Assembly (NCBI RefSeq): GCF_035084215.1
Contig: NC_090326.1
Span: 18,600,001 to 18,664,000, forward strand
Direction of reading: 5' to 3'
DNA: 64,000 nt
Source: Heptranchias perlo
Taxonomy: Eukaryota
Numbering within the stretch: position 1 is the first letter of the stretch; each line of letters opens with the position of its first letter. The translations under genes were made by a program, and so were the position numbers. A model generated the notes under the pieces. The model saw only the letters and a list, made by a program, of their open reading frames with translations. It was not told the origin of the DNA and ran no database searches. This document shows positions 7,586 to 10,323 of this stretch, piece after piece.

Positions 7586-7669
7586 CTTGTACAAAAATCA
7601 GATTACTGACATTGGTGCCCAGTATGTTTCAACACTGATCGATGAATGTCCAAGTCTCATAAAATTGAC
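7586..7669 (+). CDS. NOD1: NOD1-like copy A, LRR exon 2 (LYKNQITDIGAQYVSTLIDECPSLIKLT)
   Basis: 84 bp, flanked by tttttccag and gtaag. Matches NOD1 LYNNQITDVGARYV. Confidence 0.95.
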
Positions 7670-8505
7670 GTAAGCAAACCTATTTTGTAAACTCATGCAA
7701 ACTTTCCAATATCAGTCTGCGCTTACACTATTCACAGAGTCTGAGAAGGTTTTTTTTTGAATCAGGTTGTATAACAGCCTATTTCCAATGTGTAATAAGT
7801 GTTTCAATAAAAGATGTTTACATTTCATTATATAGTGTGTATATTAATATATATGATGTAGATGTTTCTGAGAGCACAGAAAGACGTGGGGAAGTGTAGT
7901 GGGATACCAATGAACATCGGGTTTCCCATAGACTTGTGCTCCCTCCAGCAACCCCAATTTGGCGAGTAACAATTAATTTTAGGTGTATATTTATGCATAC
8001 AGGGAACAGAGTTCTGGCAAGATGCATTCTGTGAGTGAGTGTCACACAAACAGGGGAAGCAATGCATGAAGATTTGCTGTTGGTGAGCTGAGTCTGTCTT
8101 GTGTTCCTAACGTAAATATGGAGACTTGATGTGATGATGCACATTTCCCCCTTGTGAAGAACGTAGTCAAAATAGCTGCACCCCCAGCCAGTGCTGCTTT
8201 TCAAACAGATGTCTCGAGGTGCGCTAGATTAACTTGCCCTTCCAGTTTTTGCACCATCAGGAAGTGTCTGCCTTGTGCTCCCTCTGGTGACGATCTGGTG
8301 AGATCAGAATCTCACACTCTGATGAAAACAGAAACAGAGAAGTGTGGAAAGAATCCCATTGGTCCTGGGTACAGTCACATTTCTGCTTTTGTAGAATGCT
8401 GGAATGTCAATCTCAGCCTCAGTGAGGCCATTTAATGGCAAGAGGCATGTTGATGAAGAGGGGAAAAATGTTGAACTAATTGTTTTTTCGTTTGTTTATT
8501 TAAAG

Positions 8506-8589
8506 CATTGGATACAACAAGATTACAAGTGAAGGAGGGAAAATGCTAGCACAAGCAGTTCAGAAAAGTAAGACAATCAAACACATCTG
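8506..8589 (+). CDS. NOD1: NOD1-like copy A, LRR exon 3 (IGYNKITSEGGKMLAQAVQKSKTIKHIW)
   Basis: 84 bp, flanked by aag and gtgag. Matches NOD1 LGKNKITSEGGKYLA. Confidence 0.95.
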
Positions 8590-9409
8590 GTGAGTAGGGG
8601 AGAGGATGGAGAATGAAGCCTTGTGTTGTCTTTGCCTGTTGTACTGAGCTCTTAAATGTCAACAAATATTGTATATATTCATTTTTTTAAAATCGGGTTT
8701 AAGAAATAAATGTCCAATATATTTGCGTGTTGGGGTCATGTTCAAAGAGTTAATTACTTCAATGGACATTGTCTACTGTTGAGATATTTTTAAGAACTTT
8801 ATTTTTACGTGTAGGTTACTTTTAAAACACTGACTCTTTCTTGAAGGAGATACAGAGAGTGGAATGACGTCAGTACAGATCCAGGCCACTAAAATTGCAT
8901 GACCCCACAATGTGTACCAGCTAAACCATCTGTCCTTCCCAAAATACTAAAGTCAAAATCATGAGTTATGGAATTTTGAAACTCTATTCCATTGCTGTAA
9001 AGTTTATTTGCTTCAGTCTATCTTCTGTCTGTTAGTCCTATGTAGCCTTGCTCATGTCATTGAGACACACAAATGACAATGACTCTAAAAAGCCTTGTTG
9101 TTACTGCAGTCTCACAGGTGTCTCATATTGACTACTTTGCTCCTTATTAAATAAAATTCTAATTTTACCTCTCACAACAACCTCCCTGATCAGCCTCCTG
9201 CCTATGTATGTCTGAGGCTCGTCCATTAATGTAGAATTGTACAATGTCCTTTATGTACATATGTTGGTGTAAATAAATGGACCCAAAATATAACCATGAA
9301 TGTATAAAACACAATCCACCTGTAATCTGTTAGGCTGTACAACAAGAGATAGTGCAACACAATAATTCACTCATTCAACTGCGACCTATTTGGACCTGAA
9401 ATCAATTTT

Positions 9410-9755
9410 AGAAAGAAAGAACTTTCACGACTTCAAAACGTCCCAAAGCGCTTTGAAGCGAAGTCACTGATGTAATGTAGGAAATGCACAATTTGCACAG
9501 AGCAAGGCCCCAAAAACAGCAATTAAATAAATGACCAGATAATCTGATTTAGTTTGAGGGATAAATATTGGTCAGGGACACCTCCCTTGCACTTCTTCAA
9601 ATAATGCCATGGGATCTTTTACATCCATTTGAGTGAGTAGACAAGGCCTCAGTTTAACATCTCATCCAATACTGCACTGGGAGTGTCAGCGTGGGACTTG
9701 AATCCACAACCTTCTGACCCAAAGGCAAGAGTGCTACCACTGAGCCACGGCTGAT
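9410..9755 (-). mobile_element. Deu-domain SINE, internally deleted
   Basis: Reverse complement carries the tRNA-like head GGCTCAGTGGTAGCACTCTTG, the core AAAAGATCCCATGGCA and an L2-type tail. Confidence 0.75.
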
Positions 9756-10239
9756 ACTTACTTTATTTGTCCTGCAGTAACAGAAGGAACCCATAAGCAA
9801 GTGAAATTATCAGAGGAGATATTTCTGATTCAGCTATTTGCCTGCAATTCACCAAAATGATCTATCGCCAAATGGAAATCTTGTGTTGTAGCCTCTCTTT
9901 AAAAACTGTGGTGATATTCTGAGAAAGGCTGTGAAGCACCATCATTAAAATTCTTCATAGCGTTTTTTCTATCATTCTCTAATGGTAATAGCTGTGGCCT
10001 AGTGGTGGTGCTCTGGCCTCTGAGTCAGGAGATTCATGGATTGAAGCCCCACTCCAGAGACTTGGGCACATCATCTAGGCTGACACTCCCAGTGCAGTAC
10101 TGAGTAAAAAAATACAAAGCTTGTTACATTTCATTTAGGTACAGGGTTAGGTAATGAATTGCCTACCATTTTTTACATTACGTGCTGAAGATTTTCCAGG
10201 TGAATCTGCAGTGATTGTCAGCCTTGAATTGAATTACAG

Positions 10240-10323
10240 GATGTGGGGGAATCAGATCGGAGACTCAGGGGCTGTCGCCTTTGCTGAAGCTTTAAGAAAC
10301 CATCCTTCTTTAAAAGAGCTCAG
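10240..10323 (+). CDS. NOD1: NOD1-like copy A, LRR exon 4 (MWGNQIGDSGAVAFAEALRNHPSLKELS)
   Basis: 84 bp, flanked by cag and gtaat. Matches NOD1 MWGNQVGDEGAKAFAEALRNHPSL. Confidence 0.96.

Follow-up and report, generated by a model that had tools for sequence, protein, structure and literature searches.

A tandem cluster of NOD1 genes in the shark Heptranchias perlo raises the question of whether its copies still sense the same ligand. A preliminary description of one of them (copy A) proposed that its putative peptidoglycan-binding surface had been rewritten at three residues (K790>T, E816>H, and G818>W) and that the protein senses a different ligand or acts as a ligand-blind regulator or partner.

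Organization of the NOD1 cluster

The window (i.e., the whole analyzed stretch of 64,000 nucleotides, NC_090326.1, positions 18,600,001 to 18,664,000) covers a shark NOD1 tandem cluster with the 3' end of copy A and a complete copy B, both on the + strand:

5654..5737, + strand: copy A LRR exon, residues 735-761, with the clade-specific Asn736 and Ala737
7586..7669, + strand: copy A LRR exon, residues 763-789, with Lys788; its final AC opens the Thr790 codon
8506..8589, + strand: copy A LRR exon, residues 791-817, with Tyr793 and His816; its final TG opens the Trp818 codon
10240..10323, + strand: copy A LRR exon, residues 819-845; finishes Trp818, retains Trp820 and Gly821, opens Ser846
12169..12252, + strand: copy A LRR exon, residues 847-873; opens Trp874
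13353..13436, + strand: copy A LRR exon, residues 875-901; missing in isoform X2 (P0011)
17701..17784, + strand: copy A LRR exon, residues 903-929
21949..22018, + strand: copy A terminal coding exon, stop codon included
36538..60998, + strand: copy B, complete NOD1 paralog (P0001), retaining Lys790, Asp816, and Gly818
about 36538-36723 and 41384-41558, + strand: copy B CARD exons
43739-45548, + strand: copy B NACHT exon
between 46061 and 58702, + strand: copy B LRR exons, seven of 84 nt
60929-60998, + strand: copy B terminal exon

Copy A has its CARD and NACHT exons upstream of the window; its eight exons inside are open in frame and flanked by canonical splice sites. The copy B NACHT exon is 100% identical to the NCBI NOD1-like protein P0001 from H. 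perlo, and two further NOD1 proteins of this species correspond to the copy A gene (P0011, the NCBI isoform X2, which lacks exon 13353-13436) and to a third copy outside the window (P0010). Copies A and B have 127 of 218 residues in common in their spliced LRR regions.

By identity, copy A is a NOD1 ortholog, not NOD2 or another NLR. Its LRR region shares 69% identity with the canonical shark copy and 59-65% with full-length NOD1 from bony vertebrates, while the identity of the copy A clade to rabbit NOD2 is about 33% overall. Precomputed Pfam domains of P0011 (PF00619, PF05729, PF17779, PF17776, and PF13516) give a single CARD followed by NACHT, winged helix, HD2, and LRR, as in NOD1 (NLRC1); the N-terminus has one CARD-sized stretch, in contrast to the tandem CARDs of a NOD2-type MDP sensor.

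An 88-bp segment occurs at 5838-5925 and 7780-7867 with 99% identity, in successive copy A introns and each time about 100-110 nt past the donor. Intronic tandem arrays of copy A include a 4-kb GT-rich array at 1-4120, an array of 36-bp units at 12925-13325, ending just before exon 13353 that is skipped in isoform X2, and an array of 31-bp units at 16212-16919 (unit lengths judged by eye). A putative LINE-type retrotransposon, so labeled from its translations, is located between copies A and B (31084-33865); its two ORFs, of 518 and 471 aa in overlapping frames, resemble an endonuclease and a reverse transcriptase, and related fragments occur at 51675-53125 and 23305-23844.

Residues 790, 816, and 818 in copy A and other NOD1 proteins

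Two of the three codons straddle exon junctions, as the preliminary description claimed: Thr790 is read as AC|C across 7669|8506 and Trp818 as TG|G across 8589|10240, while His816 is internal to exon 8506-8589. The exons 7586-7669, 8506-8589, and 10240-10323 are 84 nt each, have AG/GT ends, and share the phase of the copy B LRR exons. In a scan of donors within 15 nt and of acceptors between 30 nt upstream and 15 nt downstream, the sole other in-frame splice site was an acceptor at 10222. Its use would introduce a Cys and six additional residues and disrupt the 28-residue repeat register; it is used neither in the NCBI model nor in the orthologs. P0011 and eight shark orthologs all carry Trp at 818 (gene models rather than cDNA).

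The human numbering was anchored on P0010, which agrees with 22 of the 26 human positions given in Table 3 of Boyle 2013; registers shifted by 1-5 residues yield merely 0-4 agreements. Seven named mammalian NOD1 proteins of 953 aa agree at 25-27 of 27 positions by direct index. In this numbering, fixed against the Boyle 2013 positions, copy A is T790, H816, and W818, as read from its codons, so that the proposed substitutions stand. The picture of three changes is nevertheless incomplete: copy A also gains a Lys at 788 (8/8 clade proteins), adjoining the lost K790. The changes fall inside the originally described span 7640..10260, but others lie outside it (S736N, V737A, H900T/S/A, N932K, and G933S/N). 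The notion that exon 10240-10323 was itself rewritten did not hold, as it matches the canonical third copy at all 27 internal residues.

Membership of the copy A clade was assigned by an HD2+LRR tree (a quick tree without bootstrap), an LRR tree, or the residue signature. The clade comprises ten shark proteins, from Heptranchias, Pristiophorus, Heterodontus, Cetorhinus, Rhincodon, Chiloscyllium (two), Scyliorhinus (two), and Mustelus. It forms a single group in both trees, which were built without a NOD2 outgroup (8 members with SH-aLRT 100; 6 members with SH-aLRT 99). Residues were tallied exon by exon, as exon-skipped isoforms were shifted by whole repeats in a single multiple alignment and the bony-vertebrate tally derived from it was discarded. 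Of 207 proteins, 18 without a source name were removed, and 161 of the remaining 189 hold the exon for residues 791-818. Trp818 is present in all nine copy A clade proteins with that exon and Gly818 in all 152 other named NOD1 proteins with it, a comparison set that is not independent since it includes many isoforms and is rich in birds. Position 790 is Thr in four and Ala in four clade members, and position 816 is His in seven, Gln in one, and Tyr in one; hence, W818 alone of the three is invariant. The combination T/A790, H/Q/Y816, and W818 occurs in 8/8 clade proteins holding both exons. Other new residues are fixed in the clade, i.e., Lys788 (8/8), Tyr793 (9/9), and Asn736 (10/10), and Gly792, Trp820, Gly821, Ser846, and Trp874 are each retained in 9/9.

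The spliced LRR region of copy A is 78-90% identical to those of five full-length orthologs. Within-clade conservation of the two changed exons (0.90 and 0.86) resembles that in the canonical clade (0.86 and 0.89), which argues against decay; the last LRR exon (903-930) is conserved at 0.72 in the copy A clade vs 0.80-0.83 in the other clades. No copy-A-type protein from rays or chimaera was found among the matches, and a search for shorter fragments yielded no additional copy-A-type protein of any kind. As the canonical clade, with chimaera and rays, forms one group excluding copy A in both trees, lineage losses appear likelier than a late origin. Copy A is probably an old shark NOD1 paralog that maps, by inference, to NOD1-B of Tan 2021; the loss of NOD1-B in elephant shark (Tan 2021, PMC8455134) fits the absence of Callorhinchus from the copy A clade. 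In all ten clade proteins about seven residues are missing at the end of HD2, immediately ahead of the LRR region (human about 635-642). The HD2 loop that bears the Cys palmitoylation sites differs among the three shark clades.

The same residues are not found in the ordinary fish NOD1 proteins compared: eight ray-finned fishes (only three of them teleosts), coelacanth, and lungfish retain K790, D/E816, and G818. Met790 together with Asn, His, or Gln at 816 occurs in P0152 (Ascaphus truei), P0207 (Leptodactylus fuscus), and P0005 (Mustelus copy B), the two frog proteins having N816 or H816, and P0030 (Narcine) has I816; all four, which represent independent losses at the ligand site, retain G818. 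The loss of K790 and of the 816 acid is thus not unique to copy A, since two frogs and one shark copy B lack both, and the specificity of some frog NOD1 proteins may be altered. The copy B clade (window 49232-49506) has Arg at position 790 in six proteins, Lys in four, and Met in one, and is highly variable at 788; copy B itself may be retuned. The third copy outside the window, rather than copy B, is the most conservative comparator for copy A.

Binding face, signaling domains, and apparent exchange between paralogs

The substitutions are not scattered over the LRR domain. Of the positions at which the canonical shark clade and bony vertebrates are conserved, the copy A clade has lost the conserved residue at 9 of 25 on the concave face (x2-x5, after Boyle 2013, PMC3791470) and at 7 of the other 103 (Fisher p=0.0005); for the copy B clade, the corresponding counts are 3/25 and 13/103 (p=1). 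In the AlphaFold model of the Pristiophorus ortholog P0015 (mean pLDDT 82, and 94-97 in the changed repeats), β-strands span 768-770 and 796-798, i.e., human 788-790 and 816-818. Its best structural match is rabbit NOD2, and in the gap-free LRR alignment position 790 is opposite an Arg and 818 opposite a Gly. A location off the binding face, which would have spoken against the original reading, is not borne out: the residues are on concave β-strands and aligned to the NOD2 pocket.

The pocket of rabbit NOD2, itself a proposed binding site, measures about 9 x 6 x 6 Å, with R857 in its wall and G885 and S913 in its floor (Maekawa 2016, PMC4906405). The only NOD2 mutants reported to retain the MDP response are R803, V915, and C941 (Maekawa 2016, PMC4906405), so that R857 and G885, the equivalents of 790 and 818, are outside the three. 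As 818 and 790 align to the floor Gly and the wall Arg, the copy A ligand pocket is probably plugged by W818. The two positions share a column in successive repeats, and a long Lys over a Gly is replaced by a short Thr/Ala over a Trp. Of 13 pocket-area positions, picked after the data were seen, the copy A clade (n=6) has aromatic residues at 6-7, against 3-4 for the remaining shark clades (n=15) and 3-5 for bony vertebrates (n=78). The net charge of the area is unaltered because K788 stands in for K790. Among 148 proteins holding both exons, loss of the basic 790 coincides with loss of the acidic 816 in 11 of 11 cases, which suggests an ion pair. H788 was dropped as an informative site, since that position varies widely (Boyle 2013, PMC3791470). 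No solved NOD1 LRR structure was found among the PDB search matches.

Convergence on NOD2 was ruled out: at rabbit R803, F831, R857, G885, W887, W911, S913, V915, and C941, copy A has N, Y, T/A, W, W, E, S, A, and W, so that two of the nine pocket residues are identical. The best register of the ortholog repeats on the ribonuclease inhibitor chain (1A4Y) places query 3-95 onto 257-350. In this register, inferred from the reported range, W818 would fall at 261, W820 at 263, and W874 at about 318. Three of the four Trp residues of the inhibitor patch would thus have equivalents, the counterpart of W375 being Cys930.

Residues for RIPK2 and nucleotide binding remain intact. The CARD acidic patch for RIPK2 (E53, D54, and E56; positions from Boyle 2013, PMC3791470) and R69 are present in all nine clade members with a CARD. 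K208 is found in 9/9 clade proteins, and D284, D287, R333, and H517 in 10/10. These positions belong to the Walker A and Walker B motifs, sensor 1, and the winged helix (His). Copy A most likely signals via RIPK2 as NOD1 does. At CARD position 54, the P0010 clade, with its canonical pocket, has Glu in 13 of 14 proteins and copies A and B have Asp; D54 is required for NOD1 signaling (Boyle 2013, PMC3791470).

The nucleotide-binding domain (NBD) has a history different from that of the sensor. In H. perlo, 213 of its residues are the same in each of the three copies, and copy A has 397 aa in common with the canonical copy at full identity. Same-species paralogs exceed the mean ortholog identity over the NBD in 15/15 pairs (nine species) and the best ortholog in 7/15 by rounded values, the rest being tied or lower; elsewhere they exceed the mean in none of the pairs (CARD 0/13, HD2 0/15, and LRR 0/15). 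The NBD tree leaves the paralogs ungrouped, with several pairs joined by species, while the HD2+LRR tree groups them cleanly. Thus, at the protein level, the NBD is homogenized in shark, ray, and chimaera NOD1 paralogs, and CARD, HD2, and LRR are paralog-specific. A similar pattern is seen in exon 10240-10323, in which copy A is closer to the same-species canonical copy than to orthologs in 6/6 species; the two exons upstream of it are far closer to orthologs (5/5 and 4/4 species). It follows that W820 and G821 are common to the copies and that the exons setting T790, H816, and W818 escape conversion. The NBD and this LRR exon appear to be homogenized between paralogs by gene conversion, which probably also accounts for the identity of exon 10240-10323 with the third copy. 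Perfect NBD identity in a single assembly could reflect an assembly error, but the recurrence of the pattern in independent genomes speaks against it. Over their first 40 residues, copies A and B share 90% identity in H. perlo and 80% in Cetorhinus; the first CARD exon (window 36538-36723 vs P0011) is a possible further conversion tract.

Possible functions of copy A and comparison with known systems

The classical response to DAP has quite probably been lost in copy A. The preferred explanation is that it kept its signaling machinery and replaced its sensing surface. The indole of W818 would fill the small muropeptide pocket, so that iE-DAP and Tri-DAP would no longer be sensed, and the flatter, more aromatic face would bind a different ligand or protein. 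Binding would open the NACHT domain and allow oligomerization, possibly in mixed oligomers with the sister copies, whose NBDs are kept nearly identical by conversion; the CARD would then recruit RIPK2 and lead to NF-kB activation. Of the two options in the preliminary description, a different ligand is favored over ligand-blindness, given that sharks carry the new face residues without variation and that CARD and Walker residues are intact. That copy A is a signaling-competent paralog actively sensing another ligand or protein has roughly even chances. The T/A variation at 790 and the H/Q/Y variation at 816 look like relaxation rather than a new contact. The retained W820, G821, and S846, a proposed shared muropeptide contact (Boyle 2013, PMC3791470), would also count against a new ligand, as would the unaltered net charge of the pocket area.

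Those retained residues, together with W874, would suit a sensor retuned to another form of peptidoglycan (sugar-bearing, amidated, or with Lys-type stems), in which K788 would replace the function of K790, and W818, W820, and Y793 would stack on the sugar. The likeness of the W820/G821 exon to the same-species canonical copy in 6/6 species looks as if this core were maintained, position 816 tunes tri- vs tetrapeptide preference, and different specificities have been proposed for the shark copies (Tan 2021, PMC8455134). However, a basic 790 and Gly818, common to NOD1 and NOD2, are gone in copy A, and it does not converge on NOD2 W911 or R803 (E844 and N736 in copy A); retuning is considered rather unlikely. 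About as doubtful is that W818 simply plugs the pocket and copy A serves as an amplifier or damper only within mixed oligomers, loosely like the helper in a sensor-helper NLR pair. Such pairs, NAIP-NLRC4-like, form a hetero-oligomer that splits sensing and signaling. Near-identical NBDs would keep the oligomer interfaces compatible across copies, and the contrast between D54 in copy A and E54 in 13/14 proteins of the canonical-pocket clade also speaks for it. Nevertheless, a blind face would have no need to keep N736, K788, and Y793 fixed in all sampled sharks, and conversion within a tandem array may be neutral and also homogenizes the other two copies, whose pockets are normal.

A drifting duplicate, or junction codons other than those actually spliced, is very improbable. 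The lack of copy-A-type matches from rays or chimaera indicates that the gene is apparently dispensable in some lineages, the acceptor at 10222 offers an alternative, and copy A is known here from gene models. On the other hand, reading frames are open and splice sites canonical in each of the eight window exons of copy A, independent annotations of eight other shark proteins show the same residues, and changes in an LRR region 78-90% identical to five orthologs cluster on one face. A more elaborate version of the preferred explanation is offered as a speculation of low probability: in a three-gene shark NOD1 system, conversion would keep a common oligomerization engine while each gene has its own CARD and sensor, and copy A would have left peptidoglycan sensing for the detection of a protein of microbial (effector) or host (guarded) origin by a patch of Trp residues like that of ribonuclease inhibitor, acting via mixed oligomers.

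The NOD1 ligand site has so far been inferred from mutants and the NOD2 structure. Copy A offers a naturally occurring variant with three changes at the proposed site, conserved over a long time, and a canonical sister with a near-identical NBD; reciprocal swaps of the three residues between the two would directly test the pocket as the DAP site. It may also separate NOD1 peptidoglycan sensing from other reported NOD1 activities. For shark immunology, a published remark on one residue becomes a specific prediction of the role of each copy.

The cluster is the same three-copy tandem array as the triplicated NOD1 of cartilaginous fishes, comprising NOD1-A, NOD1-B, and NOD1-C (Tan 2021 eLife, PMC8455134). 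The triplication, a difference at E816 among the whale shark copies, and the hypothesis of different specificities are already published there. The main text of that paper, figures aside, does not contain "G818", "K790", or "gene conversion", and literature searches, with most subscription journals outside their coverage, returned no report of W818, the K790 loss, or conversion in shark NOD1. Within the scope of these searches, W818, the loss of K790, and the conversion mosaic appear to be new and sharpen the published hypothesis. A NOD1-like binding mechanism shared by all three copies was inferred in the same work (Tan 2021, PMC8455134), whereas copy A lacks the pocket-floor Gly.

Copy A resembles vertebrate NOD1 in its CARD-NACHT-LRR architecture, 28-residue repeats, and CARD acidic patch (Boyle 2013, PMC3791470), and keeps G792, W820, G821, S846, and W874. 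It differs from it within the seven ligand-implicated residues, where K790 and G818 are altered and 816 is non-acidic; by elimination of H788 and E816, K790 and G818 are conserved in all species examined by Boyle 2013 (PMC3791470). Rabbit NOD2 (PDB IDs: 5IRL, 5IRM, and 5IRN; PMC4906405) is the best PDB match of copy A by both sequence and structure. The two have W887/W820 and S913/S846 in common and align without gaps over the LRR, but the floor G885 and the wall R857 correspond to Trp and Thr/Ala in copy A, and R803 and W911 are unmatched. The Trp-rich patch of ribonuclease inhibitor (W261, W263, W318, and W375) binds protein (PMC2134966); by the inferred register, copy A would have an aromatic patch on a similar LRR face, a resemblance rather than homology of function. 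In zebrafish NLR-B30.2 genes, conversion likewise homogenizes the NACHT domain while other gene parts diverge (bioRxiv 10.1101/022061), but that family comprises hundreds of fish-specific NLRs, in contrast to the three ancient NOD1 paralogs described here.
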